Source: an uncultured Paludibacteraceae bacterium (GTDB lineage Bacteria > Bacteroidota > Bacteroidia > Bacteroidales > Paludibacteraceae). Taken from it: DNA of 64,000 bases. Of the stretch, positions 21,232 through 50,003 are shown in pieces. The stretch covers positions 114,256-178,255 of the forward strand of contig CAZMYT010000004.1 in assembly GCA_964570565.1 (NCBI GenBank), in the 5' to 3' direction. The translations under genes were made by a program, and so were the position numbers. Each line of letters starts with the position of its first letter. Positions within the stretch are counted from its first letter, which is position 1. The notes beneath the pieces were generated by a model that was given only the letters and a program-made list of their open reading frames with translations, did not search any database and was not told where the DNA came from.

Positions 21232-23229
21232 ATGCGTAGATACCTCCTCATTGTATTGTTTTGTATTCAAGCACTTTTGGCGATGGGGCAATTGAATACT
21301 GACCGCGTGTTGGCCATTGGGCGCAATGCGTTGTATTTTGAGGATTACGTACTGTCTATTCAATATTTCAATCAAATTATCAAGGTCAAACCGTACCTTG
21401 TAGAACCCTATTTTTACCGTGCTATTGCCAAAATTCAACTCGAGGATTATGCTGGAGCTGAGGATGATTGCAATGAGGTGATTGCGAGAAATCCTTTTAT
21501 GCCTCAAGCATTTTATGCGCGTGGTTTTGTGCGTATGCGTCTAGGCAAAGTAGAGGCGGCAAAAGAGGATTTTTCTAAAGCATTAGAATTTAGTCCAGAA
21601 AACGCCACTTATGTTCTTAATCGTGTGGAAGCCTATTTGCGATCCGAAAAATACGATGAGGCGTTGGCTGACGTGGATGTTTTATTGCGTAAAAACAAAA
21701 ATGCGACCGATTTAATGTACGAACGTGGGCGCATTTTACTACTCAAAAAGGATACGACACAAGCGTTGCAAGTTTTTGACGATTTAGTTGTAAACGATAG
21801 TTTAAATGCCGATGCTTGGGGCGCTCGCGCATTGGTAAAACTTCAACTTAACGATAATGGTGGCGCGTTGACCGACTACAATAAAGCAATTCGGTTAGGC
21901 GCACGTAATGCTGGTTATCATATCAATAGAGGTATTTTAAATTATCAGGTCAAAAATTATCGTGGTGCTTTGGCTGACTACGATCAGGCTATTGCTTTAG
22001 ACCCTACCAATGAAATGGCCTTGTTCAATAGGTCGCTTTTGCGTGCCGAAGTGGGCGATTTAAACAATGCGGTGGCCGATTTGACAGCGTTACTTAATCG
22101 CAATCCCGATTATCCGAATGCCGTTTATCAACGGGCTTTGTTATTCACAGAATTGTACGATTGGAAAGCCGCAGAAATGGATTTTTCCACTATTATAGCT
22201 AAATATCCAACGTTTGCTCCTGCTTACTACGGTCGCTCACGCGTTTATGAAAAAATGGGCAAAAAAAGAGCGGCATTTGACGATTACGACCAAGCAGAGA
22301 AGTTACTGGCCGCTGCTAAAAATAAACAACTCGATAACGTTCAAAAGCAATTGGTCATAAAGCCTACCGTGGCGCAGGATGAGTCGTTTGTGAAAGCCAA
22401 ATCACGCCTATTCAATGGTACGTCGGTGGCTACCAATTCTACGTCCGAATCGATTAGAGGTTCTATACAGAATGAAGATAGAACGGTGGTTAACGAGAAG
22501 AATTTTGTATTGTCGTACTATCAAAAAGAAGATTTGGTGCGTAAAGGCGAACGCTACAGCCCTTTAGTGGCGGCATTGAACGATACGCGCTTATTGCCCG
22601 CTAAAGTGAAATTGGTTAGTCACGAAATGCCTCTGACTTCACAGTTAATTAATTATCACTTTAAGTCAATTGATGAATTTTCCAAACGTTTGGAAGTGTA
22701 TAAAACCAATGCAGACTTGTACCTCGCTCGTGGTATTGATTATGCTTTAGTGCAGGATTTTTCGAGTGCTATTGCTGATTTTACTAGAGCTATTTACTAT
22801 CAATCAGAGAACCCGTTAGCCTATTTTTCACGGGCAAATATTCGTTTCAAAGAACTTGAATTTAAGGTCAGCGAAAGCTCAAGTGTGGATGGAACATTGG
22901 AACAACGAAAGGATTTAGAAAAAACGTATGCTCATGATTTTGAAATGATTATGCGCGATTATGATATGACTATTGATTTGGCTCCTGATTTTGCATTTGC
23001 TTGGTTCAATCGTGCCAATGTGTTATCTGTTCAGAAAGATTTTAAGGCGGCTATTCAAAATTATTCTAAAGCCATCGCTATTGATGATGAGTTTGCTGAA
23101 GCCTATTTTAATCGTGGTTTAACCTATATTTTCATCGGCGACAGTGAAAAAGGAATGGCCGATTTAAGTAAAGCGGGCGAATTGGGCATGTACCAAGCCT
23201 ATAATTATTTGAAACGTATGCGCGACTAA
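21232..23229 (+). CDS. TPR-repeat protein with signal peptide
   Basis: Many 34-aa repeats of the A..Y/F..A...P type across 665 aa. Confidence 0.8.
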   Translation: MRRYLLIVLFCIQALLAMGQLNTDRVLAIGRNALYFEDYVLSIQYFNQIIKVKPYLVEPYFYRAIAKIQLEDYAGAEDDCNEVIARNPFMPQAFYARGFVRMRLGKVEAAKEDFSKALEFSPENATYVLNRVEAYLRSEKYDEALADVDVLLRKNKNATDLMYERGRILLLKKDTTQALQVFDDLVVNDSLNADAWGARALVKLQLNDNGGALTDYNKAIRLGARNAGYHINRGILNYQVKNYRGALADYDQAIALDPTNEMALFNRSLLRAEVGDLNNAVADLTALLNRNPDYPNAVYQRALLFTELYDWKAAEMDFSTIIAKYPTFAPAYYGRSRVYEKMGKKRAAFDDYDQAEKLLAAAKNKQLDNVQKQLVIKPTVAQDESFVKAKSRLFNGTSVATNSTSESIRGSIQNEDRTVVNEKNFVLSYYQKEDLVRKGERYSPLVAALNDTRLLPAKVKLVSHEMPLTSQLINYHFKSIDEFSKRLEVYKTNADLYLARGIDYALVQDFSSAIADFTRAIYYQSENPLAYFSRANIRFKELEFKVSESSSVDGTLEQRKDLEKTYAHDFEMIMRDYDMTIDLAPDFAFAWFNRANVLSVQKDFKAAIQNYSKAIAIDDEFAEAYFNRGLTYIFIGDSEKGMADLSKAGELGMYQAYNYLKRMRD

Positions 23230-23260
23230 TTTTTATTCATTTTAATCAGTTAATCACTAG

Positions 23261-23635
23261 ATGAGAAAAATAATAAATACATCGAATGCACCGAAAGCCG
23301 TAGGGCCTTATAGCCAAGCTGTAGAGGCTAATGGAACGCTTTATATATCAGGCCAATTACCTGTTGATCCACTGACAGGCGCTATGCCCGAAGGCATTGA
23401 GGCTCAAACGCGGCAATGCTTGCAAAATGTAATTGCTATTTTGGAGGCCGCCAATTATTCGTTGTCGGATGTTGTCAAATCCGTCGTTTTATTGGCTGAT
23501 ATGGGCGATTTCCAGGCGATGAATCAGGTTTATGCGACCTATTATGCCGAGAATCAGCCAGCGCGTGTTTGCTATCAAGTGGCTAAGTTGCCTTTGGGTG
23601 CATTGGTAGAAATTGAAACTATAGCGGTTCAGTAA
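23261..23635 (+). CDS. ridA: RidA/YjgF family reactive-intermediate deaminase
   Basis: APKAVGPYSQAV...GQLP...ARV...LP.GALVEIE pattern; 124 aa. Confidence 0.88.
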   Translation: MRKIINTSNAPKAVGPYSQAVEANGTLYISGQLPVDPLTGAMPEGIEAQTRQCLQNVIAILEAANYSLSDVVKSVVLLADMGDFQAMNQVYATYYAENQPARVCYQVAKLPLGALVEIETIAVQ

Positions 23636-23668
23636 ATAGAATACTTTTTTGCTAAATATCAAGTAATT

Positions 23669-26284
23669 ATGGTTAAATTTTATGTTGTTTGTCAAACGAG
23701 TTTTGGTCAAGATTTATTTCTGTCCGTTGGCGAAACTATTGTGCCGATGCGCTATGTGGTGAATGGCTTATGGCATTGTGAATTGGACCTGACGTCTAAA
23801 TCGCCCACCGTGTATCGTTATTTTGTCCAAAATCCTGATAAATCGGTGACTGAAGAATCGCCTGTAGAGCGTTTATTGCCCGCTTTTGTTGGTAATTTAA
23901 CCGTTCACGATACGTTTCAAGCCAAAAATATTTCCTATGTATTTCGTACAACACCGTTTGTAGAAAGTCTCTGTTTTCACAAGGCTAAAAAACTACCTAA
24001 ATTATCCAAATTAGATTCGTTATTGCTTGTAAATGCACCAGCTGTAGAGTCGCATCAAGGTGTGGCGGTAATTGGTTCTCACCCGTTATTAGGCGAGTGG
24101 AATGCATCGCAATTGGTAGAAATGCAATATACCGACAATGCCAATTGGTTTGTAGTATTGAAATCGGATGAAACACTACAAGGTGCTGAATATAAGTTTG
24201 TTGTTTACGATTTGAATACGCGTGCCATTGTGCGCTGGGAAGAGGGCGAAAATAGCCGATTGCCCGAAATGGCTGTTTCTACCATGTTGACGCAAGTATT
24301 TCGACAAACATTTCAATGGAAAGGTGCTGGCGTAGCTATTCCAGTGTTTTCATTGCGTAGTGAAAACGATTGGGGCGTTGGTGAATTTTACGATTTAAAA
24401 GAGATGGTCGATTGGGCAGAGCAGACTGGACAAAAGTTGATTCAAATTTTGCCAATAAATGATACGACTAACACGAAAACAGATACTGATTCCTATCCTT
24501 ATAGTACCAATTCTGTCTACGCATTACATCCCATGTACCTTAATATGAAAGGGTTGGGCGTGCTTAAAGATAAAAAACAGTTCGCCAAGTTTGAACAAGA
24601 AGGACAACTTTTAAATGACAAGTCGTATGTGGATTACGCTGCTGTCAATCATTTGAAATGGAACTATTTGATGGCTATTTTTGCGCAGGAATCGTCCACA
24701 GTATTTGCCACTCAAGCTTATCAGGATTTCTTTAAAACGAATGAATCGTGGTTGGTTTCTTATGCTGTTTTTAGTGCTTTGCGCGACGAATTTGGAACGT
24801 CCGATTTTCGTCAGTGGCCCCATTTTTCTACCTATGATGAAAAAGCGGTGAAAGCCTTCGCTGATAAGCATTTTGATGCCATTTCCATTTATTATTTTGT
24901 CCAATATCATTTGGCACGACAACTCTCTGAAGTGCGCGATTATGCACATGCTAAAGGCGTTGTGTTTAAAGGCGATTTACCTATTGGCATCAGTCCCAAT
25001 AGTGTGGATGCGTGGATGTATCCACGTTTATTCCATTTGGATAAACAGGCTGGTGCGCCGCCCGATGATTTTTCGGTGACTGGGCAAAATTGGGGTTTCC
25101 CAACTTATAACTGGGAAGAAATGGCCAAAGATGGTTTTAGTTGGTGGAAAAATCGTTTTCAAAATATGGCTCATTATTTTGATGCATACCGTATCGATCA
25201 TATTCTAGGATTCTTCCGTATCTGGGAAATTCCAAAGTCTTCTGTGTGGGGATTGTTAGGTTATTTTAATCCTGCTTTGCCTTTGTCGGTGGCTGAAATA
25301 GAGGCTTATGGTATTCGTTTTGATGCCGATCGATTACTCACACCTTATATCACAGAAGCGTTATTGACCGAACTTTTTGGGGAACAAAAAGAGTCTGTAA
25401 TCTCACACTTTTTGGATATTAAAAGTGCTGGTGTTTATCAATTTAAACCGTTGTTTGATACGCAGCAGAAGGTACAACACTATTTTGATACGCATGATGT
25501 AACTTCAGAAGAAAAGTTGTTGTTGAATGGACTTTTGGAGTTGCATACGGAAGTGCTTTTTGTGGAAGATATCTATCACAAAAATTCCTATCATCCACGT
25601 ATTACCATTCAAAAATCGCATGTCTTTAAATCACTCGATGATGCCTTTAAAAATAAGCTAAATCGTTTGTACGAAGATTATTACTATTACCGTCATACCG
25701 AATTTTGGAAAAGGCAAGCGATGGCAAAACTTCCTGAATTACTACGTACTACGAATATGTTAGTTTGTGGAGAAGATTTGGGTATGGTACCAGCTTGTGT
25801 CCCGGCAGTGATGGAGGCGTTACAAATTTTAAGTTTAGAAATTCAGCGTATGCCTAAAAATCCTGCTACGGAATTTGTATTGCCTTCTGAAACGCCTTAT
25901 TTGTCGGTTTGTAGTACAGGAACGCACGATACGTCGCCTTTGCGAAGTTGGTGGCTCGAAAATCCAGAATCGATACAACGTTACTATACCAGTGTATTGC
26001 GTAATAAAGGCGTAGCTCCAACCGAGTGCACTACTGATTTAGCGGAACAAATTATAAGTCAACAGCTCCAAGCCAATGGCATGTGGGTGATATTACCGTT
26101 GCAAGATTATTTAGCTATGGATGGCACGTTACGTTTGGCAAATCCGTTAGCTGAACGCATCAATGATCCTAGCAATCCGCATCATTTTTGGAGTTACCGT
26201 ATGCATCTCACCCTTAATGAGTTGAATCAAGCGTCCGACTTTAATCATAAATTGTATAAACAGATAATGGCGTATCGCCATTGA
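23669..26284 (+). CDS. malQ: 4-alpha-glucanotransferase (GH77) with N-terminal starch-binding-like domain
   Basis: GH77 blocks (GVAIPVFSLRS, YPYS..S, DLPIG, RIDH..GF, GEDLG, GTHD). The roughly 200-aa N-terminal extension resembles CBM20. Confidence 0.88.
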   Translation: MVKFYVVCQTSFGQDLFLSVGETIVPMRYVVNGLWHCELDLTSKSPTVYRYFVQNPDKSVTEESPVERLLPAFVGNLTVHDTFQAKNISYVFRTTPFVESLCFHKAKKLPKLSKLDSLLLVNAPAVESHQGVAVIGSHPLLGEWNASQLVEMQYTDNANWFVVLKSDETLQGAEYKFVVYDLNTRAIVRWEEGENSRLPEMAVSTMLTQVFRQTFQWKGAGVAIPVFSLRSENDWGVGEFYDLKEMVDWAEQTGQKLIQILPINDTTNTKTDTDSYPYSTNSVYALHPMYLNMKGLGVLKDKKQFAKFEQEGQLLNDKSYVDYAAVNHLKWNYLMAIFAQESSTVFATQAYQDFFKTNESWLVSYAVFSALRDEFGTSDFRQWPHFSTYDEKAVKAFADKHFDAISIYYFVQYHLARQLSEVRDYAHAKGVVFKGDLPIGISPNSVDAWMYPRLFHLDKQAGAPPDDFSVTGQNWGFPTYNWEEMAKDGFSWWKNRFQNMAHYFDAYRIDHILGFFRIWEIPKSSVWGLLGYFNPALPLSVAEIEAYGIRFDADRLLTPYITEALLTELFGEQKESVISHFLDIKSAGVYQFKPLFDTQQKVQHYFDTHDVTSEEKLLLNGLLELHTEVLFVEDIYHKNSYHPRITIQKSHVFKSLDDAFKNKLNRLYEDYYYYRHTEFWKRQAMAKLPELLRTTNMLVCGEDLGMVPACVPAVMEALQILSLEIQRMPKNPATEFVLPSETPYLSVCSTGTHDTSPLRSWWLENPESIQRYYTSVLRNKGVAPTECTTDLAEQIISQQLQANGMWVILPLQDYLAMDGTLRLANPLAERINDPSNPHHFWSYRMHLTLNELNQASDFNHKLYKQIMAYRH

Positions 26285-26321
26285 TGACCGATTGTCGGCA
26301 TAAATCGTTTATTTTCTTACT

Positions 26322-27140
26322 ATGAATGTTATTAAAAAACAGTTGAAATTTCTACTTGTTGGTGTTTGTTTATACGCGTCTCTGGGAGTGAATGCACAAA
26401 CGCTCAATGATTATCAAACACGTTTGATGCATTTGTTTCAGGCTATTAAAACAGCGGATACGGATTCGGTACGTTTACAGTATAATGATTCTGTGAAGAC
26501 ACTGTTTTCTGAGACGTTAAATCAGAAAGAATCATTTAATTTCCCGTTCGACAGTTTGACTTACGTGGGTAAAATTACGTCTGATGATGCTAAATTGCGC
26601 CTATATACCTGGAATGTGGTTACCGATAGTGGGTTAGTCTTTAATGGTTTTTTGCAGAAACTGTCGGGCGAAGTAATACCGCTGAAACAGTCTGAAACAG
26701 CCTATAAACCGACTACGAAACAAGTTGTTCTTGCCAATAATTGGTATGGAGCATTGTATTATAGAGCAGTGGCGTATAAGTATAAAAAACAAACGGTGTA
26801 TATGCTTGTAGGTTGGAGTCAATGTGATGAACGTACGCAGTATAAAGTGTTAGATGTGCTTTCGTTCGACGAATTTGGTGTGGCTCGTTTTGGCATGCCT
26901 ATTTTGTTTGATGAAGAAAAGCAATCGTTTACGCGTGCTGTTTTTGAATATGATGCTCATATTGTGATGTTCCTTGATTATGAGCCGTCTCGCAAGCGGT
27001 TTGTATTCGACCATTTGTCGCCCATGAAATACTTTGAAGATGAGACAGTAACACTGGGTCCCGACATGTCGGTGGACAGCTATGTGCGAAAATCGAAAGG
27101 CTGGTTTTTAAAAGAAGACCTTCGCATGAGAAATCGGTAA
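26322..27140 (+). CDS. secreted hypothetical protein
   Basis: Signal peptide ...SLGVNAQ. No motif recognised. Confidence 0.5.
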   Translation: MNVIKKQLKFLLVGVCLYASLGVNAQTLNDYQTRLMHLFQAIKTADTDSVRLQYNDSVKTLFSETLNQKESFNFPFDSLTYVGKITSDDAKLRLYTWNVVTDSGLVFNGFLQKLSGEVIPLKQSETAYKPTTKQVVLANNWYGALYYRAVAYKYKKQTVYMLVGWSQCDERTQYKVLDVLSFDEFGVARFGMPILFDEEKQSFTRAVFEYDAHIVMFLDYEPSRKRFVFDHLSPMKYFEDETVTLGPDMSVDSYVRKSKGWFLKEDLRMRNR

Positions 27141-27184
27141 ATCGGTCAATTGTTAAATCCCGCATAAACTCGGAAAAACCATAC

Positions 27185-27229
27185 ATTTTTGTATTGTTTT
27201 TTCGAGTTTTTTTACGTATTTTTGCTGTT
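27185..27229 (+). repeat. 45-nt direct repeat, left copy (contains a -7 box)
   Basis: ATTTTTGTATTGTTTTTTCGAGTTTTTTTACGTATTTTTGCTGTT is 44/45 identical to 29493-29537. Confidence 0.95.
27217..27224 (+). promoter_or_regulatory. candidate -7 box TATTTTTG inside the left repeat
   Basis: TAnnTTTG match about 220 nt upstream of the 391-aa ORF. Confidence 0.4.
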
Positions 27230-27443
27230 CACCAGTAAGGGTATGCTTATTATTATATCTTATGTTTCTGTTCTCCTATTGTATTCCTATTATGAAATAA
27301 TGGTGTGTTTGGTGTATTGTAAATTTTCTTGCTTTATTTAGCTAAGGTTGAGCCAAGATGGAGCTATGATCGAGGCGTAATTTTTTATTGCTTTGGGCTA
27401 TCGTTTGCTCTCTAATTGTTTTTTATCCTATTAAACTATACTT

Positions 27444-28619
27444 ATGACTTTTACTCCAGAGTCCAATTTTAATGCCTTTGCCTATTTTGGTAGTCATCAT
27501 GATCAGTATGAACCTGATACGGTTCTTTTAATTGAGAGTTTATTAAACGCCACTATTCGCTATGATTTGAGAACCAATGCCTCCAATATGGGGAAATTGT
27601 GTCGTTGTTATTTAGATTCAGCTAAATCGATTAATCTCTTTGTCACGTACAGTCAGCAAGAGTTTGACCTGTTAAGTCCCGAAAATCTGGCTGAATGCAT
27701 TATGACGGACTCACCTGAGACCACGGAATTGGCACCCAATTTTGATGCTTTTATGGAATTGATTGGTCGCGATGCGACGTTTGTTTGTATGTATGCTGCT
27801 TTGCAAAATTTCCGTGCGAATGGTATTTTGGATTTTGAATCTATGTATGCTAAACCGCCATTCCAAGCGATATTGGCTCGCCGTGAAACTGTGCATGTTC
27901 CTTTGGAAACGTTGGTCACTCTTCATTTTGAAGAGCAGTTTGTGGTCAAATGTGTTCCTGTTGACCATGATTTAAATCATACGTTCGCTATTATTCAAAC
28001 TGGTTTATCTCTGTTTCAGTGGGCTATTCGTACCCCTAAAAGTTATTTATATGTGGTCAAGAAATGTGGACAGGATCTTTTTTTTCCAGATGATAATGAT
28101 CGTATTTTATTTTTACTGTATTTGTTGAATTTGGTACATTACTACGCACCTCGTCAGATGACCGAACGTGATCGTGCAGCTTTAGAGTTTCGATTACAAG
28201 ATATTTATTCTAGATATACGAAAGTGCCATGGGATTTGAAAGAGCTGCATGAGGTGCCAGATGAAGCTATTATAGATGCTGATTTAGAATCGCTTACTGA
28301 TTCAGATGTATCGCAGTGTTTATCGGGTATTACCCTCAATTCTGATGTGAGTAAGTTGGATTTTATACGGGTATTATATGTCTTGTACGAACTTGATTTT
28401 TTTGTCAAAGAGTCTGGTAAAAAGGTGACCAAAAAGGAGTTATTTGCTTTTTTGGCTACTTGGCTCGGTAAAGAGACATTGGCGCATTATGATAAGGATA
28501 TGACCAACAGCTGGAAATCGGATATGAGTGCTCATATCGCTATATTTGATACCATGCGGTCGAAAATGGTAGAATTGGCGACTAACAAAAATGTAGCTAA
28601 CTATAAAAAGATTGAATAA
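27444..28619 (+). CDS. orphan 391-aa protein; C-terminal ~70 aa resemble a winged-helix domain of RteC-type regulators (tentative)
   Basis: Long clean ORF. The C-terminus SKLDFIRVLYVLYELDFFVKESGKKVTKKELFAFLATWLG has the same residue pattern I remember from RteC C-termini (SK.DLVELIYAL...G...NG K...KEIA..F). This is from memory only. Confidence 0.5.
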   Translation: MTFTPESNFNAFAYFGSHHDQYEPDTVLLIESLLNATIRYDLRTNASNMGKLCRCYLDSAKSINLFVTYSQQEFDLLSPENLAECIMTDSPETTELAPNFDAFMELIGRDATFVCMYAALQNFRANGILDFESMYAKPPFQAILARRETVHVPLETLVTLHFEEQFVVKCVPVDHDLNHTFAIIQTGLSLFQWAIRTPKSYLYVVKKCGQDLFFPDDNDRILFLLYLLNLVHYYAPRQMTERDRAALEFRLQDIYSRYTKVPWDLKELHEVPDEAIIDADLESLTDSDVSQCLSGITLNSDVSKLDFIRVLYVLYELDFFVKESGKKVTKKELFAFLATWLGKETLAHYDKDMTNSWKSDMSAHIAIFDTMRSKMVELATNKNVANYKKIE

Positions 28620-28625
28620 ATGAGT

Positions 28626-28683
28626 CAAAAAGCTAGGGTAAAATCTCACCAAGGCTAGGGTTGTTGGTTCAAAAGCTAGGGTA
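28626..28683 (+). repeat. three phased direct repeats, core GCTAGGGT (iteron-like)
   Basis: GCTAGGGT at 28632, 28654 and 28675 (spacing 22 and 21 nt). Copies 1 and 3 extend to TCAAAAGCTAGGGTA. Confidence 0.8.
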
Positions 28684-28720
28684 GCGGCGATTAACCTTGT
28701 GGGTTTTGTTACTGTTTATG

Positions 28721-28757
28721 TAGAGTTTTCCTGTATGAGGGAAAACTCTATTTTTTG
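28721..28757 (+). terminator. rho-independent terminator after the 391-aa gene
   Basis: 11-bp stem tagagttttcc / ggaaaactcta followed by TTTTTT. Confidence 0.65.
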
Positions 28758-28773
28758 TTGATAATAAAGCACT

Positions 28774-28781
28774 TACCTTTG
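28774..28781 (+). promoter_or_regulatory. candidate -7 box TACCTTTG for the small two-gene unit
   Basis: TAnnTTTG match with TTTG about 16 nt upstream, 82 nt before ATG 28863. Confidence 0.35.
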
Positions 28782-28833
28782 TACTGTCAGTTTCGCAGAT
28801 GGTGTTGTGTGATTGACATTTTTATTATTAACA

Positions 28834-28846
28834 GTCGCTTAGCGAC
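28834..28846. promoter_or_regulatory. operator-like palindrome GTCGCT-T-AGCGAC
   Basis: Perfect 6+1+6 palindrome between the candidate promoter and the small ORFs. Confidence 0.35.
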
Positions 28847-28862
28847 CTAATTTATTTTAAGT

Positions 28863-28970
28863 ATGAAACAAATTCTACTTGATGTCCTTGCCAAGACTCA
28901 AAACCTGGCGAACGCCCTTATGAAAGGATGCGGAGTGTATCATTTTAGTGCTAAAGGAGGTGTACTATGA
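28863..28970 (+). CDS. 35-aa ORF (MKQILLDVLAKTQNLANALMKGCGVYHFSAKGGVL), translationally coupled to the next ORF
   Basis: Hand translation. Its stop TGA overlaps the next ATG (ATGA at 28967-28970). It is below the length cut-off of the ORF track. Confidence 0.3.
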   Translation: MKQILLDVLAKTQNLANALMKGCGVYHFSAKGGVL

Positions 28971-29302
28971 AGGTGATTGACAATTTGATTACTGAAGGGC
29001 TTTCTGGTAAAGTGGAGCAATCGAAGTATTGTTTTAGACGCCACTATGGTAGTACTTTTTTGACTCTGAAGTCGATACCTAGTGGTGAGGAAACTCCTCA
29101 GCAACGGCTGGTAAAGAGTTGGTTTACGGAGGCTCAGCGGTTAGCAAACGTGGACATGGGCGAGACTACTAAACGCCTTGAGTGGGAGCAGAAGTTGCAC
29201 AAAACGAAGTACAAAACGCCTAAAGGTAGAGCTTTTGCTTATTATTTTAAGCAGTTGAAAGCTGGTGTTATTTCTGTACCAGAGATTACAGAAGAGCCAT
29301 AG
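28967..29302 (+). CDS. hypothetical basic 111-aa protein
   Basis: ORF in the track. It is followed by a terminator hairpin. No motif recognised. Confidence 0.45.
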   Translation: MKVIDNLITEGLSGKVEQSKYCFRRHYGSTFLTLKSIPSGEETPQQRLVKSWFTEAQRLANVDMGETTKRLEWEQKLHKTKYKTPKGRAFAYYFKQLKAGVISVPEITEEP

Positions 29303-29327
29303 AGTTGTATTGAGTGGTTGAATGGAT

Positions 29328-29368
29328 GGGAGTTACCTCTGTGAATGCATTGGTAATTCCCATTTTTA
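29328..29368 (+). terminator. rho-independent terminator
   Basis: gggagttacc / ggtaattccc stem (one mismatch) followed by a T-run. Confidence 0.5.
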
Positions 29369-29492
29369 CTTTTTATGAGTCCATGCTCTGTGGATGCGTT
29401 GGCAACCTATATTGAAGGGGATGGCAGGTGTCTATTGTTAGCGTTATGCTTAATCCTCCTTGTTCAGGGCTTTTAGTGTACGAAAATAATAG

Positions 29493-29537
29493 ATTTTTGT
29501 ATTGTTTTTTCGAGTTTATTTACGTATTTTTGCTGTT
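29493..29537 (+). repeat. 45-nt direct repeat, right copy (promoter of the glycan locus)
   Basis: 44/45 identical to 27185-27229. Sequence outside the 45 nt is unrelated. Confidence 0.95.
29525..29532 (+). promoter_or_regulatory. candidate -7 box TATTTTTG upstream of wzm
   Basis: TAnnTTTG match about 160 nt upstream of the wzm ATG. Confidence 0.4.
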
Positions 29538-29694
29538 TAATAGAGATTATTTTGTTAGGCGTTGATAATCAGTGCCAAAATGTGTTAACTAGTGGGTTAT
29601 TCGTAGACATTAATGGTCTTTTGGTCGATTATAATCCTAACAAACGGTAAAAAAATAAACATAAATCGAACGATTTGTAACTAATTATGTGTGT

Positions 29695-30540
29695 ATGGAC
29701 GAAAAATACTCCACCCTAATTGAACCCAAAACATCGCTTCTGTCTGTCGATTTTAAAGAAATTTGGCGTTATCGCGATTTGTTTTCGATGTTTGTGAAAC
29801 GTGATATCATCACGCAATACAAACAAACCATATTAGGTCCAGCTTGGTTCTTTATTCAACCATTGCTTACCATGGTGATGTACATGATTGTGTTTGGAGG
29901 TATTGCCGGTATTAGTACCGATGGGCTGCCACAAGCACTTTTTTATTTAGCAGGCATTTTGTGTTGGCAGTATTTTGCCGACTGCTTGAATAAAACGTCT
30001 AGTACATTTACCACGAATCAAAATATTTTTGGTAAAGTTTATTTCCCACGTTTGATCGTGCCTTTAGCTACGGTTTCTTCTAATTTGGTACGTCTCTTTA
30101 TTCAGCTATTCTTGTTTGTGGTAGTTTATGTTTACTATTTGGTAGTTGGCGTTAATGTCGCTCCCAATTGGTATGTGCTGTTATTTCCTGTTTTGGTACT
30201 CATGTTGGCAGGTTTGGCGTTAGGCTTTGGTATTATTATTTCGTCGATGACCACCAAATATCGTGATTTGACTATTCTATTCACCTTTGTGGTGCAATTG
30301 TGGATGTATGCTACGCCTATTATTTATCCATTGAGCACGATTACCAACACAACTGTTCGTACGGTTATGCTTTTAAATCCCATTACTTCCATTGTTGAAA
30401 CGTTCAAATATGGCGCGTTGGGCATTGGCTCATTTAGCTGGGGTGCTTTAGGGTATAGTTTTGGGTTTATGGTAGTATTGTTGGCCGTTGGTATTGTGGT
30501 GTTCAATAAAGTGCAACGTAGTTTCATGGATACGGTGTAA
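29695..30540 (+). CDS. wzm: ABC-2 type polysaccharide export permease
   Basis: FKEIWRYRDLFSMFVKRDIITQYKQTILGPAWFFIQP is the classic Wzm/TagG N-terminus, followed by 6 TM segments. I prefer ATG 29695. Confidence 0.88.
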   Translation: MDEKYSTLIEPKTSLLSVDFKEIWRYRDLFSMFVKRDIITQYKQTILGPAWFFIQPLLTMVMYMIVFGGIAGISTDGLPQALFYLAGILCWQYFADCLNKTSSTFTTNQNIFGKVYFPRLIVPLATVSSNLVRLFIQLFLFVVVYVYYLVVGVNVAPNWYVLLFPVLVLMLAGLALGFGIIISSMTTKYRDLTILFTFVVQLWMYATPIIYPLSTITNTTVRTVMLLNPITSIVETFKYGALGIGSFSWGALGYSFGFMVVLLAVGIVVFNKVQRSFMDTV

Positions 30541-30585: not shown

Positions 30586-31956
30586 ATGGTAGTTAATGCA
30601 CTAGAGTTATTACTTAAACAGAAACGTTTTGATTTAATTTTTAAGTACGTTTTTCTTGCTCAACAAAATGAGTTTGCTCACAATGCGTATCTTGAGAATA
30701 TTAGAGCGTTTAATAATTTTTACGAGCTCAATCCAAGTGATGGTGTTCCTAAAAATTCAGCTGATGATTTTGTGCAAAGTTTTAATAACTTAATTCAAAA
30801 CATAAAAGATAACGGATTTAAAGCGGCTAAAGGATCGATTCCTATCGGTAAAAATGGTGACATAACCGATGGCGCACATCGCTTAGCAGCATCGGCCTAT
30901 CTTGGATTGGATGTTGAAACCGTTGATGATACGGATTATGATGAGTTGTACGATTATCGTTTTTTTCAACAACGTCAGATGAATCCTGATGTGATGGATT
31001 TTGGTGCATTGGAATATGTTAAGTTAAACAAAAACGCTTATATTGTTAATATTCATTCAGTTACAGATGCAACTAAAGATGCTGAAGTAGAGGCTGTTTT
31101 AAATAAGTATGGTTTTATATTTTATAAAAAACAGGTCGATTTAACTCAGAATGGGTATGTAAATATCAAGAAATTGTCATATGGATTTTTTTGGGATCGG
31201 GAGTCGTGGATTGGAAATGTTGATAATAAATTTGCAGGCGCACGAGCTCATGCAAAAGCTTCTATGGGTAAATCGCCTTTGCGTGCTTTTGTTTTTGTAT
31301 GCGATGATTTAGAAAAAGTTTTATTGGCAAAAAGTGAAATTAGAGCTATTTTTGATATTGGGAATTACAGTGTTCATATCAACGATTACCGCGAAGAAGC
31401 TATATGGCTTGCAGAAATTTATTTTAATAAAAACTCTTTATTCATGATCAATAATCGTCCTTTAGCATTTGAGGATGAGGAATTTGATACTTGTATAGAG
31501 TCTTTGAAACAATTGGCTAAAGAGCACAATATACCGTTAGATAACATTTGCGCATCAGGCAGTAGCCCTTTAAATGTCTTTGGAGTTAGAAAAAGCGCAG
31601 ATTTGGATTTCTTGTGTCTTAGCGACAATTTCGATATTCAAACAGAAGAATTATCAAACCATGAAGACCAACTGAAGTATTATCCATACCCGAAAGCGGA
31701 GATTATCACTAATCCTAACTACCATTTTTACTATCATGGTTTGAAGTTTATTAGTTTGGATGTGTTATATCAAATGAAGAAAAATAGAGCAGAAAAACCT
31801 AAAGATATCAATGACTGTAAGCGGATACGAAAGATATTTACTCAAAGCAAGCGTGATAAAATGCTTTCACGATTAAAGAAATACAAAAATACATACAAGA
31901 TGGTTCGATCAATAATTAAGCCCATCTATAAAACAATAAAAAAATTAATCAACTAG
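30586..31956 (+). CDS. two-domain protein: N-terminal ParB/sulfiredoxin-like domain plus C-terminal Pol-beta-type nucleotidyltransferase-like domain
   Basis: ITDGAHRLAAS (DGxHR, aa 95-99) and ASGSSPLNVFGVRKSADLDFL (G[GS]-x12-DxD, aa 324-341). It is encoded between wzm and wzt. Confidence 0.5.
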   Translation: MVVNALELLLKQKRFDLIFKYVFLAQQNEFAHNAYLENIRAFNNFYELNPSDGVPKNSADDFVQSFNNLIQNIKDNGFKAAKGSIPIGKNGDITDGAHRLAASAYLGLDVETVDDTDYDELYDYRFFQQRQMNPDVMDFGALEYVKLNKNAYIVNIHSVTDATKDAEVEAVLNKYGFIFYKKQVDLTQNGYVNIKKLSYGFFWDRESWIGNVDNKFAGARAHAKASMGKSPLRAFVFVCDDLEKVLLAKSEIRAIFDIGNYSVHINDYREEAIWLAEIYFNKNSLFMINNRPLAFEDEEFDTCIESLKQLAKEHNIPLDNICASGSSPLNVFGVRKSADLDFLCLSDNFDIQTEELSNHEDQLKYYPYPKAEIITNPNYHFYYHGLKFISLDVLYQMKKNRAEKPKDINDCKRIRKIFTQSKRDKMLSRLKKYKNTYKMVRSIIKPIYKTIKKLIN

Positions 31957-32053: not shown

Positions 32054-33298
32054 ATGAGTGATGCAATAAAATTTGAAAATATCAGTAAACAATACCGCCT
32101 TGGTTTGGTAAGTACACAAACGTTGAGTCACGATATTAATCGATGGTGGAAGGTAAATGTCTTACGCCAGGAAGATCCTTATCTCAAAATAGGTTCCGTG
32201 AACGATCGTTCTAAAGCGGCTGATGGTGATTATGTGTGGGCTTTAAAAGATATTTCTTTTAGTGTAGCACAAGGCGATGTTATTGGCATTATTGGTAAAA
32301 ATGGTGCAGGAAAGTCGACTTTGCTTAAAATCCTATCTAAAGTGACTACGCCTACCACAGGTACTATTAAGGCCCGTGGTCGTATTGCGTCATTGCTTGA
32401 AGTGGGCACAGGCTTTCACCAAGAAATGACTGGACGTGAGAACATTTACATGAATGGTGCCATAATGGGCATGTCCAAGAATGAAATAACGCGTAAATTA
32501 GACCAAATTATTGATTTTTCGGGTTGCGAGCGTTATGTTGATACGCCAGTAAAACGTTATTCAAGTGGTATGACTGTACGTCTTGGATTTGCTATTGCAG
32601 CGCATTTGGATCCCGAAATTTTGGTAGTGGATGAAGTGTTGGCTGTTGGCGATGCTGAGTTTCAAAAGAAAGCTATTGGCAAAATGCAGGATGTGAGCCG
32701 TGGTCAAGGACGAACTGTGTTATTTGTAAGTCATCATATGCCTTCTATTCAGCAATTGTGTTCTTCTTGTGTATTGCTTGAAAACGGTATGATTTCTACT
32801 ATTGATAAGACCAATGTGGTGATTGATAAATATATAAGAGAACAGAGCATCAAAGGTAATTATGAACGTCAAGGTTCAGGCTTTGTCCGTTTTCAGTCTT
32901 TTAGTTTGACTAAAGATAGTATTGCGATAGGTGAGGATCTAGAGCTGAATCTAACCCTGAAAACCTCGGAATATATTGCAAAAGCCATTATTCATATCAA
33001 TATTTATAATGACAATGAACAATATGTCTTACAGGCGTCGAGTGAGGACAGTGAATTTATTCTAACCAACTTGGCACCTAAAGCGACCTATCATGTTAAA
33101 TGTGTATTACCACATTTGAATGCTATTCCTGGAAACTATTCTATTAATTTGTGGGTAGGTACTCCTTATGAATGGTTTGATTGGCTTAAAGGATGTCTTC
33201 AATTTTCGATTTATCAGGATCAATCGTATATTAAACGGGTTTCTCCATACCCATCTGATGCTAAATTAGTGCTTCAGTCGGAATGGAAAAATTTGTAA
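32054..33298 (+). CDS. wzt: polysaccharide ABC exporter ATP-binding protein with ~165-aa C-terminal extension (Wzt_C-like glycan-binding domain)
   Basis: Walker A GKNGAGKST, signature YSSGM and Walker B ILVVDE. The extra C-terminal beta-rich region is as in Wzt proteins that recognise capped O-chains. Confidence 0.85.
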   Translation: MSDAIKFENISKQYRLGLVSTQTLSHDINRWWKVNVLRQEDPYLKIGSVNDRSKAADGDYVWALKDISFSVAQGDVIGIIGKNGAGKSTLLKILSKVTTPTTGTIKARGRIASLLEVGTGFHQEMTGRENIYMNGAIMGMSKNEITRKLDQIIDFSGCERYVDTPVKRYSSGMTVRLGFAIAAHLDPEILVVDEVLAVGDAEFQKKAIGKMQDVSRGQGRTVLFVSHHMPSIQQLCSSCVLLENGMISTIDKTNVVIDKYIREQSIKGNYERQGSGFVRFQSFSLTKDSIAIGEDLELNLTLKTSEYIAKAIIHINIYNDNEQYVLQASSEDSEFILTNLAPKATYHVKCVLPHLNAIPGNYSINLWVGTPYEWFDWLKGCLQFSIYQDQSYIKRVSPYPSDAKLVLQSEWKNL

Positions 33299-45981: not shown

Positions 45982-46968
45982 ATGCTTTTATCCATCATCA
46001 TACCCGTTTACAATGTAGCGCCTTACGTTGAGAAATGTTTGGCGAGTTTATTGTGTCAAGGGCTGGCGCCGTCTGACTATGAATTGATTGTGGTCAACGA
46101 TGGTTCCACCGATGAGTCGTACACGATAGCTAAAACATTTTTGGAGCATCAAGCTAGCCTTGCGCCTTTCACCTTTCACCTGATTTCCCAACCCAATGGT
46201 GGATTGAGTGCTGCTCGCAACACAGGTATTCGTCACGCTAAAGGAAAATACATCCAGTTTGTCGATTCCGACGATTATTTAGAACCGCATGTATTGGGTG
46301 CGTTGGTTCAAAAGATGGAGCGAGAACAGTTGGATGTTTTGCGATTCAACTATCAAAATGTGAACGAACAGTACCACGTGTTTGAGCCGTATAAAGCCAT
46401 GAAACCATTTGTCGATTACCGCGATGAGATATGCGATGGTTTAACTTTTCTCACAGAGCGCTTGGGCTACGGCTGTTATGCGGTGCAGTTTATGATACGC
46501 GCTACACTGTTGCAAGCCGAAGTACATCACTTTAAAGCGGGCATCTATTTTGAAGATACCGAATGGACGCCTCGTTTATTGGTGCGTGCACAGCGTGTAA
46601 CTTCCGTAGATACGATGGTGTACAACTATTTGATGCGCACAGGTTCCATTACGCAAAGTGTGGATCCTGAAAAAACTAAAAAGTTGCTGAACGATAAATT
46701 GTTACTTATCGACTCTATGAAACAGCAAGCCCAACAACAGCCCGATAAACGTTGGTTTTTTGGCATGATAGCAGCCACCGTTATTTCGCTGCTTGGTTAT
46801 GTAGGAGCCGACTTTTATCCTCACAGGGCTTTTTATTTCAAAGCGTTACGCGAAAAAATGATTTATCCATTGTCTATGTATCATAGTTCTAAAGTAGCAA
46901 AGCGCAAAATACGGGTTATAAATCTGTCGCCTGCCTTGTTTTGTTGGCTGTTACGCGTTAAACGTTAA
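45982..46968 (+). CDS. glycosyltransferase family 2
   Basis: LSIIIPVYNV...VNDGSTDES...VDSDDY. Its stop codon lies in the first word of the following repeat array. Confidence 0.8.
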   Translation: MLLSIIIPVYNVAPYVEKCLASLLCQGLAPSDYELIVVNDGSTDESYTIAKTFLEHQASLAPFTFHLISQPNGGLSAARNTGIRHAKGKYIQFVDSDDYLEPHVLGALVQKMEREQLDVLRFNYQNVNEQYHVFEPYKAMKPFVDYRDEICDGLTFLTERLGYGCYAVQFMIRATLLQAEVHHFKAGIYFEDTEWTPRLLVRAQRVTSVDTMVYNYLMRTGSITQSVDPEKTKKLLNDKLLLIDSMKQQAQQQPDKRWFFGMIAATVISLLGYVGADFYPHRAFYFKALREKMIYPLSMYHSSKVAKRKIRVINLSPALFCWLLRVKR

Positions 46969-47165
46969 GGGTTAGGGATGAAGGGTTAAACGTTGAACGT
47001 TTAGCGTATAGCGTGAAGAAACTACGTTTAGCGAATAACGAGCAACGTTAAGGGTGAGGGATGAAGGGTTAAAGGTTAAGGGTTTAAAGAACGACATTAA
47101 ACGTTGAACGTTTAGCGTTTAGCGTGCAGTAACTACGAGCAACGATTAACGAGCAACGATAAAAC
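46962..47165 (+). repeat. tandem composite repeat (unit 1 about 83 nt, unit 2 about 121 nt): GGGTTA-type words followed by AACGTT/TAGCG words
   Basis: ACGTTAAGGGT(T/G)AGGGATGAAGGGTTAAA and AAACGTTGAACGTTTAGCGT(A/T)TAGCGTG each occur twice. The perfect palindrome AAACGTT-G-AACGTTT is at 46988-47002 and 47099-47113. Confidence 0.85.
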
Positions 47166-47167
47166 GT

Positions 47168-47194
47168 ACATGAAAGTAGCATATTTATTAGGTT
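47168..47194 (+). repeat. 27-nt direct repeat, left copy (copy of the 5' end of the GT4 gene at 48765)
   Basis: ACATGAAAGTAGCATATTTATTAGGTT is 26/27 identical to 48763-48789. Confidence 0.95.
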
Positions 47195-47300: not shown

Positions 47301-47927
47301 ATGAATACACTCTCAGAAATAGGAGCGGTTCCAGTTGATTTTTCGCTACTGAAGGCGATGTATCCTAATCACAAATCGATACATAATAAAATCAGTGAGT
47401 TAGAAAATGCAGGAAAACTTATTCGCTTGAAAAAAGGTTTGTATGTGGTTGCTCCCCAAGAGAGTGGCATGCTGTTATCGTCAGAGTTGATAGCCAATCA
47501 TTTATATGGTCCATCTTATGTTTCCAAAGAGTCTGCTTTACGTTATTATGGCTTAATTCCTGAACAGGTTTATACGCTGTATTCAATGACCACAAAACAT
47601 GCTAGAAGTTTTACAAATGCATTAGGCACATTTGATTATACACACTGTTCGAACGATTATTTTACCATAGGTATTAGGCAAGAATCGAAAGAAGGTTTGT
47701 TTTTTTTAATGGCAACTCCAGAGAAAGCTTTGTGCGACTTAATTATAAACACACCCAACCTAAATCTCCGTTATCAAAAGGAAATCAGAACCTATTTAGA
47801 AGAGGATATACGGTTTGACATGCAGGCATTTTTTAAGATGGATGTGGAAATTCTAAAACAATGTCTGTTGTATGGTAAAAAAAAGCCTATCATTACCAAT
47901 TTAATTCACCTCATCAGAAAATCATGA
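47301..47927 (+). CDS. abiEi: type IV toxin-antitoxin system AbiEi family antitoxin
   Basis: N-terminal wHTH-like ...ISELENAGKLIRLKKGLYV... and ...YVSKESALRYYGLIPE... patterns typical of AbiEi. ATGA overlap with the next gene. Confidence 0.75.
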   Translation: MNTLSEIGAVPVDFSLLKAMYPNHKSIHNKISELENAGKLIRLKKGLYVVAPQESGMLLSSELIANHLYGPSYVSKESALRYYGLIPEQVYTLYSMTTKHARSFTNALGTFDYTHCSNDYFTIGIRQESKEGLFFLMATPEKALCDLIINTPNLNLRYQKEIRTYLEEDIRFDMQAFFKMDVEILKQCLLYGKKKPIITNLIHLIRKS

Positions 47928-48748
47928 ATCCAATGTTTGAACAAATGGTTTCGTCCTATCAAATGGTGACCGATAAGGATAGACGAAATGCCATGTATGA
48001 AGTTATGCAAAAAATAACGTTAGCTGGACTTTATCGAGGAGGTTTTTTCGATAAAGCTGCGTTTTATGGCGGAACTTGCTTACGGATTTTTCATAACATG
48101 GAGCGATTTTCAGAAGATATGGATTTTTCTCTTTTGGTGGCCGATGAGTCGTTTAAAATTGAACACTATTTTCCCGCTATTATCGAAGAGTTTCATTTGG
48201 TAGGCCGAGAGGTGGAGATTACTAAAAAAGATAAAACGCAGTTCAGTAAAGTTGATTCAGCCTTCTTAAAGGACGATACAGATGTGTATGATGTGGTATT
48301 TAAGACTGAGAAAAGTTTGAAAATAAAAATAGAGGTGGATACCCAACCTCCGTTGCAATTTCAAACTGAACATAAATTGTTATTGCGTCCCTATTCGTTT
48401 ATGACACGCTGTTTTACACTACCTAATTTATATGCGGGGAAAATGCACGCATTAGTTTTTAGAACCTGGAAAAATCGTGTAAAAGGCCGTGATTGGTATG
48501 ACTTTGAATGGTACGTTCGCCATGAAGTTCCCTTAAATTTTACTCATCTACAAGAACGTATTAGGGTTTTAAATGGCTTGGAGATGGATGAAAACCAATT
48601 CTTACAACTCCTTAAGGAGCGGTTAGCTTCCACTGATATCAAACAGGTGAAACAGGATGTGGCACCTTTTATAAAAAAACCTAAAGCATTGGAAATTTGG
48701 ACTAATAACTATTTTTTGCAGTTGGCTGACCTGATTAAATTTGAATAA
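47924..48748 (+). CDS. abiEii: AbiEii/AbiGii family nucleotidyltransferase toxin
   Basis: FYGGTCLRIFHNMERFSEDMDFSL (GGT.L...R.SEDxDF) motif and KIEVDT block; 274 aa. Confidence 0.8.
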   Translation: MNPMFEQMVSSYQMVTDKDRRNAMYEVMQKITLAGLYRGGFFDKAAFYGGTCLRIFHNMERFSEDMDFSLLVADESFKIEHYFPAIIEEFHLVGREVEITKKDKTQFSKVDSAFLKDDTDVYDVVFKTEKSLKIKIEVDTQPPLQFQTEHKLLLRPYSFMTRCFTLPNLYAGKMHALVFRTWKNRVKGRDWYDFEWYVRHEVPLNFTHLQERIRVLNGLEMDENQFLQLLKERLASTDIKQVKQDVAPFIKKPKALEIWTNNYFLQLADLIKFE

Positions 48749-48762
48749 ATAAAACTAAACAC

Positions 48763-48789
48763 ACATGAAAGTAGCGTATTTATTAGGTT
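48763..48789 (+). repeat. 27-nt direct repeat, right copy (true 5' end of the GT4 gene)
   Basis: See 47168-47194. Confidence 0.95.
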
Positions 48790-49871
48790 CATTAAATCGG
48801 GGCGGTACCGAAACGTTGGTGTTAGATGTGTTTAAAAAAGCATCGCAAGCACCATTTCAAGTGGTTGGCATCCATCGTAAAAGTGGTGCTTATTTGCCCG
48901 GTTTTAAAGCGACTGGTGAAAAAATGATAGCTTTAGCACCGCGGTTCGTGGGTGATGTGAGTTATTTTGTCAAACTGCGTCGTTTATTGCAACGTGAACG
49001 CGTAGATGTAGTGCATGCGCAACAGTCTTTGGATGCGGTGTATGCTCGTATAGCGTGTGTTGGAACGGATATTAAAGTGGTGCAAACGTTTCATGGATAC
49101 GATTTTAATGCTGGAAAACTGATGCGGCGTTTTATGCGTTTTAGTGCTCATTGGGTGGATGCTAATTTTTTTGTAAGTGCATCACAACGAGATTATTATA
49201 TTAAATCTTATCAATTAAAAGACCACCATAAACAGCACGTAGTTTATAATGGCGTTAATTTCGATAAATTAGACCAACAGGTAGCGCAAGTTGATTTACC
49301 AATTGGTGGCGACCCTGCTTCGCAGGGACTCAAATTGGCGATGGTCGGCAATTTTGTTCGCGGACGCGAACAAAATACCGTTTGTCAATTTCTGAAGTTA
49401 TTAAAAGAGGCTGGTGTGCCGTTCGATTTCTATTTTGTTGGTCGCAAAAGTGAATCAGAGCCTTGGTTGTATGACGATTGTGTTGCCTATTGTCAAGAAC
49501 ATCAGTTGCTCAATTGTGTTCATTTTCTGGGTGGGCGTGGCGATGTTCCAGCCATTTTAAAACAGTTGGATGCTTTTATTTATAGTACCGACCACGATAC
49601 GTTTGGTATAGCTGTCATCGAAGCGATTGCGGCTGGCGTGCCAACCTTTGTAAACGATTGGGAGGTTATGGTAGAAATTACGCAACAAGGTAGATGGGCA
49701 ACTATCTATAAAACCAAGGATGCAGCCGATTTATTCAATAAATTTATTACTTTTGTAGACCATAAAGAACACTATAAACAACAAGCGTGTTCGCATGCGC
49801 AGGAAGTACGTAGTACCTACAGCATTGAACAGCATATGTTGGCGTTGTCAAATTTGTATAATACACTGTAA
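48765..49871 (+). CDS. glycosyltransferase family 4 (GT-B)
   Basis: MKVAYLLGSLNRGGTE start and a C-terminal E..FGIAVIEA.AAG.P block. Confidence 0.8.
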   Translation: MKVAYLLGSLNRGGTETLVLDVFKKASQAPFQVVGIHRKSGAYLPGFKATGEKMIALAPRFVGDVSYFVKLRRLLQRERVDVVHAQQSLDAVYARIACVGTDIKVVQTFHGYDFNAGKLMRRFMRFSAHWVDANFFVSASQRDYYIKSYQLKDHHKQHVVYNGVNFDKLDQQVAQVDLPIGGDPASQGLKLAMVGNFVRGREQNTVCQFLKLLKEAGVPFDFYFVGRKSESEPWLYDDCVAYCQEHQLLNCVHFLGGRGDVPAILKQLDAFIYSTDHDTFGIAVIEAIAAGVPTFVNDWEVMVEITQQGRWATIYKTKDAADLFNKFITFVDHKEHYKQQACSHAQEVRSTYSIEQHMLALSNLYNTL

Positions 49872-49873
49872 AG

Positions 49874-50003
49874 CATTGATTATTGATAATAGATTATTGA
49901 TGTACAAAACACAATGCCATTGATTATTGATAATAGATTATTGATTTATCCATAATCCATTTATCCATAATCTATATATTGATTTATCTATAATTTTAAT
50001 ATT
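49874..50003 (+). repeat. upstream repeat module of four-helix-bundle gene 2 (CATTGATTATTGATAATAGATTATTGAT x2, then ATCCATAATC words)
   Basis: A 44-nt unit at 49874 is repeated from 49918. The tail TTATCCATAATCCATTTATCCATAATCTATATAT recurs downstream of the gene. Confidence 0.85.

Follow-up and report, generated by a model that had tools for sequence, protein, structure and literature searches.

Few regions of bacterial genomes vary as much as the surface-glycan loci, and how their modules are swapped without operon breakage has mostly been inferred from enterobacteria. In those bacteria the JUMPstart element, part of the RfaH system, reportedly lies upstream of the polysaccharide clusters. 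The capsule loci of Bacteroides, studied by the Comstock laboratory, have invertible promoters and UpxY/UpxZ. Horizontal exchange by homologous recombination is common for glycan loci, and homology-facilitated illegitimate recombination is said to occur in naturally transformable bacteria. Here we describe the head of a Wzm/Wzt glycan locus in a 64,000-nucleotide stretch (the window) of contig CAZMYT010000004.1 from an uncultured Paludibacteraceae bacterium. At this locus head a 45-nucleotide (nt) sequence, the 45-mer, occurs twice as a direct repeat and encloses 2.3 kb with genes for proteins of 391 and 111 amino acids (aa), p391 and p111. An earlier sequence-only reading of the window took the enclosed DNA to be a self-contained cassette, brought in by Campbell-type integration of a small circle or marked by an att duplication. 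Our analysis points, with a probability of about 60%, to a duplicated terminator-promoter unit that brackets modules, resident and deletable, at the head of a Wzm/Wzt glycan locus subject to horizontal exchange, with repeat-mediated loss and possibly regain of the modules.

Results

The repeat pair

The 45-mer, ATTTTTGTATTGTTTTTTCGAGTTT(T/A)TTTACGTATTTTTGCTGTT, lies on the + strand at 27185-27229 (copy 1) and 29493-29537 (copy 2). The copies have the same orientation and are identical at 44 of 45 positions, as the sequence-only reading had it; the single mismatch is the T/A at position 26. The units that contain them and the genes outside them are as follows.

26322-27140, + strand: p272, the resident flanking gene, no family assigned; its 3' flank bears copy 1
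27166-27229, + strand: putative terminator-promoter unit, copy 1 (45-nt repeat 27185-27229); nearly invariant here in 10 related loci
29475-29537, + strand: putative terminator-promoter unit, copy 2 (45-nt repeat 29493-29537); predicted promoter before wzm, with its -7 box at 29525-29532
29689-30540, + strand: wzm (ABC-2 permease, PF01061), first gene of the long glycan operon placed behind copy 2

When up to three mismatches were tolerated, these two copies were the only matches in the 64-kb window, and 100 dinucleotide-preserving shuffles of the window gave none. The repeat can be extended leftward by 10 nt, to 55 nt at 93% identity (27175-27229 and 29483-29537). A weak likeness continues for about 10 nt further left, into the hairpin arm described below, and past that the flanks in the window are unrelated. 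Wherever an occupied related locus extends this far, copy 2 stands behind the 111-aa gene. A scan of metagenome contigs for the exact pattern of the 45-mer core found 7 copies in 6 loci, all at one of the same two positions, and every copy in the other related loci was likewise placed. The 45-mer is thus not the generic promoter of unrelated operons that had been envisaged as an alternative; in the metagenome and the related loci its copies stand at the two glycan-locus-head positions only.

Within each copy stands TATTTTTG, which fits the consensus TAnnTTTG of the Bacteroides -7 box (PMC4747536), with a TTG 20 nt upstream of it; in copy 1 the TTG is at 27194-27196 and TATTTTTG at 27217-27224. 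The -33 element of both copies is ATTG, a 3/4 match to TTTG, so that both copies combine a -7 box with a TTTG-like -33 element at the spacing of approximately 19-21 nt that is looked for in promoters of the Bacteroidota housekeeping sigma factor. The pattern TTG-N20-TAnnTTTG was found 7 times in the window, compared with 2.3 expected, and both copies of the 45-mer are among the 7.

The 20 nt to the left of copy 1 (27166-27185) base-pair with the first half of the 45-mer. The resulting hairpin (27166-27209; -20.6 kcal/mol, z -6.8) starts 26 nt past the p272 stop codon and is followed by U7. Copy 1 and its left flank therefore have the stable hairpin, the U-tract, and the position past a stop codon of an intrinsic terminator, probably that of the p272 gene. 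The left hairpin arm of copy 2, by contrast, has degenerated in the window (z -0.2) and is better preserved in the distant relative L005 (-15 kcal/mol). By this anatomy, the 5' half of the 45-mer would supply an intrinsic terminator with its descending arm and T-tract, the -7 box would lie in the 3' half, and the right end would fall at about the expected transcription start. The repeated unit thus looks like a compact terminator-promoter junction, an activity read from consensus and folding.

Alleles of the locus head

The loci compared were the contigs of p391 homologs, three genomes found via p272 (Paludibacteraceae/Prevotellaceae metagenome-assembled genomes), and six loci from the 45-mer scan; they were mapped by tblastn and blastn. 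Their gene orders are as follows.

Type A: p272 - 45-mer - 391 - 111 - 45-mer - wzm; the window, L008, L021, and L026
Type B: p272 - 45-mer - gmd - fcl - 391 - 111 - 45-mer - wzm; L009, L010/L001, L018, L022, and the fragments L002 and L020
Type C: p272-like - gmd - fcl - 391 - 111 - 45-mer - wzm, single copy; L005/L006 and L025
Type D: ugd genes - 391 - 111 - 45-mer - wzm or another gene, single copy; L004 and L023/L024
Type E (empty): p272 - 45-mer - wzm; L015

Behind p272 and copy 1 there are thus three allele classes. Over the parts compared, L026 (JGI Ga0116255_10000002) is 99.9-100% identical to the window. Type D varies, with wza-wzc upstream in L004 and gmd-fcl after the ugd genes in L023.

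The empty allele, L015, is a 31.6-kb metagenome contig (JGI Ga0265295_1002218) with p272 (93% aa identity), one 45-mer, and wzm (98% aa identity), and it has neither the 391-aa nor the 111-aa gene. A site of this kind, with a single 45-mer between the p272 homolog and wzm, had been proposed from the window alone and does exist. Alignment of L015 with the window covers 21476-27229 at 95.6% and 29490-30540 at 92.8% identity, and the two alignments overlap by 48 nt across the single 45-mer. Colinearity with the window thus ends at 27229 and resumes from 29490, which places the junction of L015 within the 45-mer. L015 is the allele expected of recombination between the two copies, the precise deletion leaving one promoter in front of wzm that had also been foreseen.

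The sample of L015 also contains an occupied contig, L018 (type B), and the metagenome scan found no third contig with a 45-mer from that sample. Between L015 and L018 the wzm regions are 7.3% apart, and between L015 and all other loci 5-8%. The glycan genes of L015 downstream of wzm are unlike the window's in content and are partly common with L018 at approximately 94%. Taken together, these results argue against L015 being an assembly chimera with the occupied contig L018. The occupied fragment L016 and L015 agree at every base for at least 90 nt when copy 2 of L016 and its leader are set against the single copy of L015, and therefore a crossover between two 100%-identical 45-mers is plausible.

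The 391-111 pair is followed by the 45-mer in all occupied related loci long enough to show it, among them distant lineages without the left copy (L004, L005, L023, and L025). In type B, the repeat pair encloses 4.4 kb that includes gmd and fcl. Because the same repeats bracket gmd-fcl-391-111 in six close relatives, they are not specific delimiters of the 2.3-kb unit. Compared with type B, 2.2 kb directly past 27229 are missing from the window, and a filler stands there; the blastn breakpoints of the window with L009, L010, and L005 are at 27229 and 27307.

27230-27314, + strand: filler of 77-85 nt, common to the window and L008 only; relatives have gmd-fcl (2.2 kb) here

The 77 nt after copy 1 had no match elsewhere in the window or in the collected loci other than L008, and L021 has a different filler at the same place. 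The sequences to the right of copy 1, namely the gmd leader in type B, the filler of the window and L008, and the filler of L021, all start within 1 nt of the same base past GCTGTT. In type B, the gmd leader and the wzm leader are weakly alike for approximately 40 nt past the 45-mer (TCATA...ATATTTT...TAATCAGT). Because of this residual similarity, the original duplication may have covered the promoter and part of the leader.

Across 23669-30540 of the window, the locus head and the genes around it differ in their degree of divergence. In L005, wzm, p111, and fcl are 94-99% identical (aa) to those of the window or its close relatives. In L025, p111 and fcl are at 94-99% and wzm is at 91%. In both of these type C loci, GH77 is only 52% identical to the window's and p272 is at 40-42%. 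The contrast between 94-99% in the locus-head genes and 52% in GH77 indicates that the whole locus head moves horizontally between lineages by homologous exchange, and that the exchange between these distant lineages was recent. In L010, the 3' flank of p272 is identical to the window's, although p272 overall is 74% identical.

At 7700-7860 of L004, a decayed fcl 3' end was observed upstream of the 391 leader, at a locus that now has ugd genes. It follows from this remnant that the fcl-391 linkage is old, and the remnant is evidence of a past cassette replacement at the locus head.

The p391 and p111 genes

The features between the filler and copy 2 are given below; ORF denotes an open reading frame and UTR an untranslated region.

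27315-27443, + strand: conserved leader of the 391-aa gene (7-locus alignment), directly past fcl in relatives
27444-28619, + strand: gene for the 391-aa protein p391, no family match, 38 homologs
28631-28682, + strand: three GCTAGGGT motifs (starts 28631, 28653, and 28674), approximately 22 nt apart, in the 3' UTR of the 391-aa gene
28720-28757, + strand: predicted intrinsic terminator of the 391-aa gene (hairpin 28720-28751, -17.5 kcal/mol, z -5.3, U-tract)
28774-28781, + strand: internal -7 box TACCTTTG, invariant in six loci; predicted promoter of the unit of small ORF and 111-aa gene
28864-28971, + strand: 35-codon upstream ORF, putatively coding; its stop and the start codon of the 111-aa gene overlap in ATGA
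28967-29302, + strand: gene for the 111-aa protein p111, always paired with the 391-aa gene, no family match
29324-29368, + strand: predicted intrinsic terminator of the 111-aa gene (hairpin 29324-29365, -22 kcal/mol, z -5.3, U-tract)

The two internal terminator hairpins and the internal promoter-like box at 28774, which had been noticed in the sequence-only reading, are thus present, with folding z values of -5.3 and a box invariant in six loci. The stem of the 391-aa gene terminator shows compensatory changes in L009, L010, and L005. The frame of the 35-codon ORF is preserved in six loci despite substitutions, and the surrounding 220 nt (promoter, leader, and small ORF) are almost invariant even where p391 is 68% identical. 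The GCTAGGGT motifs are kept in six loci while the spacers between them diverge, and RGCTARGGT has 4 matches in the window compared with 0.8 expected; the three motifs are possibly protein-binding sites. The 5' leader of the same gene has a related sequence, AGCTAAGGT, at 27340. The interior holds no ORF of 90 aa or more besides p391 and p111. Scans for tRNAs and Rfam families gave no match in the region, and the G+C profile showed neither an anomaly nor a foreign-DNA signature.

The ratio of nonsynonymous to synonymous substitution rates was 0.25-0.44 for p391 and 0.13-0.18 for p111; the corresponding values were 0.01-0.06 for wzm and 0.09-0.26 for p272. Purifying selection acts on both interior genes. 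The 38 homologs of p391, at 68-91% identity, are all unannotated. For p111, no more than six clusters of close homologs were found, and remote matches were lacking. Searches of p391 and p111 against Pfam (E ≤ 0.1 for p391, E ≤ 10 for p111), PHROGs, NCBIfam, and PADLOC gave no match, in agreement with the earlier impression that the interior proteins are orphans. In the same PADLOC run the AbiE pair described below was matched strongly. No NusG-like or KOW domain, as looked for in a comparison with UpxY/UpxZ, was found in either protein with Pfam at these cut-offs. A profile of p111 had no match among PDB sequences, and a resemblance of p111 to DUF6266 was considered and dropped because no Pfam match supported it.

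The AlphaFold2 model of full-length p391 was too poor for use (predicted local distance difference test, pLDDT, 48.9). That of the C-terminal ~90 aa (residues ~295-381) had a pLDDT of 83.6 and consists of a helix, a beta-hairpin, and three helices. Homologs of this domain form the C-termini of numerous proteins, 80-490 aa long, from Bacteroidota, with 67 matches among 50%-identity representatives and 158 clusters by profile search, none of them annotated; the N-terminal partners vary among the relatives. Judged by this homology, the C-terminal domain of p391 belongs to a large unannotated Bacteroidota family. Foldseek found no significant counterpart of the domain model in the PDB (best E 1.3). 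Weak Foldseek matches to RTP, FoxP3, and MukE, which would make the domain winged-helix-like, were not counted as evidence. The domain profile matched only designed pentatricopeptide repeats among PDB sequences, with no passing stretch, and these matches were set aside as spurious. Distant relatives of the domain fell into no Pfam, NCBIfam, or PHROG family and gave one sub-threshold HIRAN match. The three contexts of such relatives that were sampled are restriction-modification/Fic islands or an island with HU-HIG, HTH (helix-turn-helix), DUF3987, and GH25. Our guess is that p391 and p111 have a regulatory role with DNA or RNA binding.

Searches for mobile-element features

Scans of the interior proteins with Pfam, NCBIfam, and PHROG found no integrase, transposase, relaxase, or recombinase domain, which agrees with the earlier statement that integrase and transposase are lacking. 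With p391 as query, tblastn found no homolog in 50,697 phage records and 72,556 plasmids, and a scan of IMG/VR with the p391 alignment found none either; homologs in plasmid and virome collections had been among the expectations of the sequence-only reading. The locus has the flanking repeats and the one-copy empty site of an integrative element. It has no recombinase, and the pair was found neither at other genomic sites nor in an extrachromosomal form, standing always at a glycan-locus head and followed by the 45-mer. Nor does the arrangement correspond to integron cassettes: the repeats are direct, and none lies between fcl and the 391-aa gene in two-module alleles. No integron integrase was found among the proteins scanned in and beside the cassette, the rest of the window not having been scanned for one.

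These results do not bear out the view of a self-contained foreign cassette. The 391-111 pair is resident and under purifying selection, it is present in every occupied locus including the single-copy lineages, and p391 has no phage, plasmid, or IMG/VR homolog. Nothing was found in support of a recombinase acting in trans, and no recombinase gene is present. We conclude that the 391-111 pair is a resident selected module, possibly regulatory, and not a mobile element.

Other features of the glycan locus

Behind wzm, the window contains the following gene, assigned with Pfam.

32054-33298: wzt

Between wzm and wzt the window has a 456-aa ORF without a Pfam match (30586-31956). L009, L015, and L022 do not have this ORF there; in these loci the gene next to wzm is wzt or a PF05635 gene.

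Two further small cassettes are bracketed by direct repeats. An AbiEi/AbiEii pair (47301-48748, strong PADLOC matches) lies within a 33-nt direct repeat (47162-47194 and 48757-48789, 30/33 identical) that takes in the start of the next gene downstream, a GT4 glycosyltransferase gene (48765-49871), with its ATG and first 25 coding nt. The parallel drawn earlier between this cassette and the 2.3-kb unit holds for the direct repeat. No empty site was found for AbiE among the contigs with an identical GT4 protein, all of which carry AbiE. A PF05635 (23S_rRNA_IVP, four-helix-bundle) gene at 50004-50375 lies between direct repeats of approximately 61 nt (49875-50484). In relatives, PF05635-family genes are found at differing intergenic spots, wzm/wzt or gmd/fcl (L022 11257-11622, L025 10942-11307, and L023 3898-4209), each set in short-period repeats of the AACGTT/AAGCGT type. 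Because of their shifting positions within such repeats, the PF05635 genes resemble a small mobile cassette. Just upstream of the AbiE cassette, at 46961-47162, is a short-period repeat block of approximately 200 nt (AACGTTAAGGGTTAGGG..., TAGCGT...) of the same kind as the repeats around the PF05635 genes of relatives; no PF05635 gene is present at this spot.

Discussion

The explanation we favor, a duplicated terminator-promoter unit around resident and deletable modules, can be laid out as follows. The wzm-proximal copy 2 would be the older one, and a second copy would have come to lie behind p272 in the clade of this genome, so that the head modules (391-111, or gmd-fcl-391-111) became enclosed by two identical promoters. 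Copy 1 would terminate p272 and drive the first head module, and copy 2 would drive wzm and the glycan operon. The two copies could then serve as substrate for homologous recombination or replication slippage, by which everything between them would be lost and one promoter would stay before wzm. In the reverse direction, the module could be regained if an excised circle re-entered or if an occupied donor supplied its allele as a replacement. The repeat and its anatomy, the synteny, the three allele classes, the purifying selection, and the lack of mobile-element genes are shown by the sequences; the direction of these events (deletion or insertion) and their mechanism are inferred, as are the activities of the promoter and terminator.

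Several points weigh against this explanation. Promoter and terminator activity have been deduced from consensus matches and folding only. L015 is the only empty-site contig found and is a metagenome assembly, and de Bruijn assemblers are in principle able to make a false join at a repeat of 45-55 nt. The change may have run in either direction, and on these sequences the state of L015 could be ancestral. The three junctions at one base past GCTGTT are not predicted by simple random deletion, a hint that a more specific joining mechanism may operate where the 45-mer ends on its 3' side; selection may purge rearrangements that damage the promoter, or recombination may be anchored in the conserved 45-mer. 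Finally, the origin of the second 45-mer copy is left unexplained.

The repeats could also be the scars of a small circle with one 45-mer that entered by a Campbell-type crossover at the wzm promoter, or through an att-like site with a recombinase in trans, in which case excision would restore the empty site. The direct repeats and the precise empty site fit this account, as do the occurrence of occupied (L018) and empty (L015) alleles in one metagenome and the three distinct junctions at one base, the 3' edge of the 45-mer. The AbiE and PF05635 cassettes of the same locus are likewise bracketed by direct repeats, and relatives of the p391 C-terminal domain occur in restriction-modification, Fic, and DUF3987 islands. 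We nevertheless consider entry as a circle unlikely. The interior proteins include no integrase or transposase, homologs in phages, plasmids, and viral contigs are lacking, and the 391-111 pair was seen at no other kind of site. Nor was a circular junction seen, a search for one having been impossible. Moreover, distant lineages hold the pair with the right copy only, and what lies between the repeats varies, being gmd-fcl-391-111 in six loci.

It is decidedly unlikely that the repeat is a mere duplicated promoter without structural consequence and that L015 reflects a jump of the assembler from copy 1 to copy 2. There is one such contig only, all other p272 loci hold the interior, and a repeat of 45-55 nt is long enough to branch k-mer graphs at small k. 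L015, however, is 31.6 kb long and has a wzm allele 5-8% away from that of every other locus. Its genes past wzm differ in content from the window's and are partly common with L018 (~94%), and no separate contig of the same sample holds the missing interior with 45-mer ends. To the view of 391-111 as a selfish or defense two-gene module, toxin-antitoxin or abortive-infection-like, that parasitizes glycan loci as AbiE does and is kept by addiction and not by a role in glycan synthesis, we give the lowest odds. In favor of this view, the two genes are small, lie together, and have predicted promoters and terminators of their own; p391 evolves fast (0.25-0.44, compared with 0.01-0.06 for wzm), its C-terminal domain family is found in defense islands, and the module is dispensable in L015. 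But it has no PADLOC, Pfam, or PHROG match, it is strictly positioned at glycan-locus heads in all of the occupied loci (at least 12), and its genes are separate transcription units and not an operon.

A broader synthesis, rather unlikely as a whole, would join these observations. The 391-111 pair would be a regulatory or immunity module of glycan-locus heads, the p391 domain would probably be a nucleic-acid-binding family, and the 45-mer would be a portable terminator-promoter junction to whose 3' edge different modules are joined time and again, given the three independent junctions at one base. Together with the AbiE and PF05635 cassettes, this would amount to a general, recombinase-free capture and shedding of small cassettes in glycan operons in a way that preserves transcription.

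The locus offers a concrete case of module swapping in uncultured Paludibacteraceae-like Bacteroidota, with natural alleles that have two, one, or zero modules and a head exchanged across lineages whose flanking housekeeping GH77 is at 52%. The two conserved orphan proteins and the large unannotated domain family are candidates for glycan-locus regulation. The practical value is modest and consists of better locus annotation and a testable model of repeat-mediated module loss.

Among known systems, elements flanked by Campbell-type or att repeats share with this locus the direct repeats around an insert and the one-copy empty site. They differ from it in that no integrase, extrachromosomal relative, or other site was found here, the content varies, and the insert occurs without the left repeat in distant relatives. 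The heads of Bacteroides capsule loci are similar in having a Bacteroidota -7 promoter before a long glycan operon and small locus-specific genes first. The repeats here are direct and not inverted, which excludes an inversion switch; neither p391 nor p111 carries a NusG, KOW, or any other Pfam domain, and the transporter is Wzm/Wzt. Like the 45-mer, the enterobacterial JUMPstart/ops is a short conserved non-coding element at the head of divergent glycan clusters and at the boundaries of exchanged segments. JUMPstart lies in the transcribed leader and acts via ops and RfaH, whereas the 45-mer ends at about the predicted transcription start and appears to consist of a core promoter and a terminator arm; the ops core GGCGGTAG has no match in the window. 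Deletion and duplication between short direct repeats, by RecA or slippage, to which homology-facilitated illegitimate recombination is related, resembles the present case in its same-orientation repeats of 45-55 nt, in a natural allele without the intervening DNA in which one repeat is kept, and in needing no dedicated recombinase. In the present case the events are known from their end states, and the repeat itself is a putative functional terminator-promoter unit, so that either outcome, occupied or empty, would leave each transcription unit a promoter.

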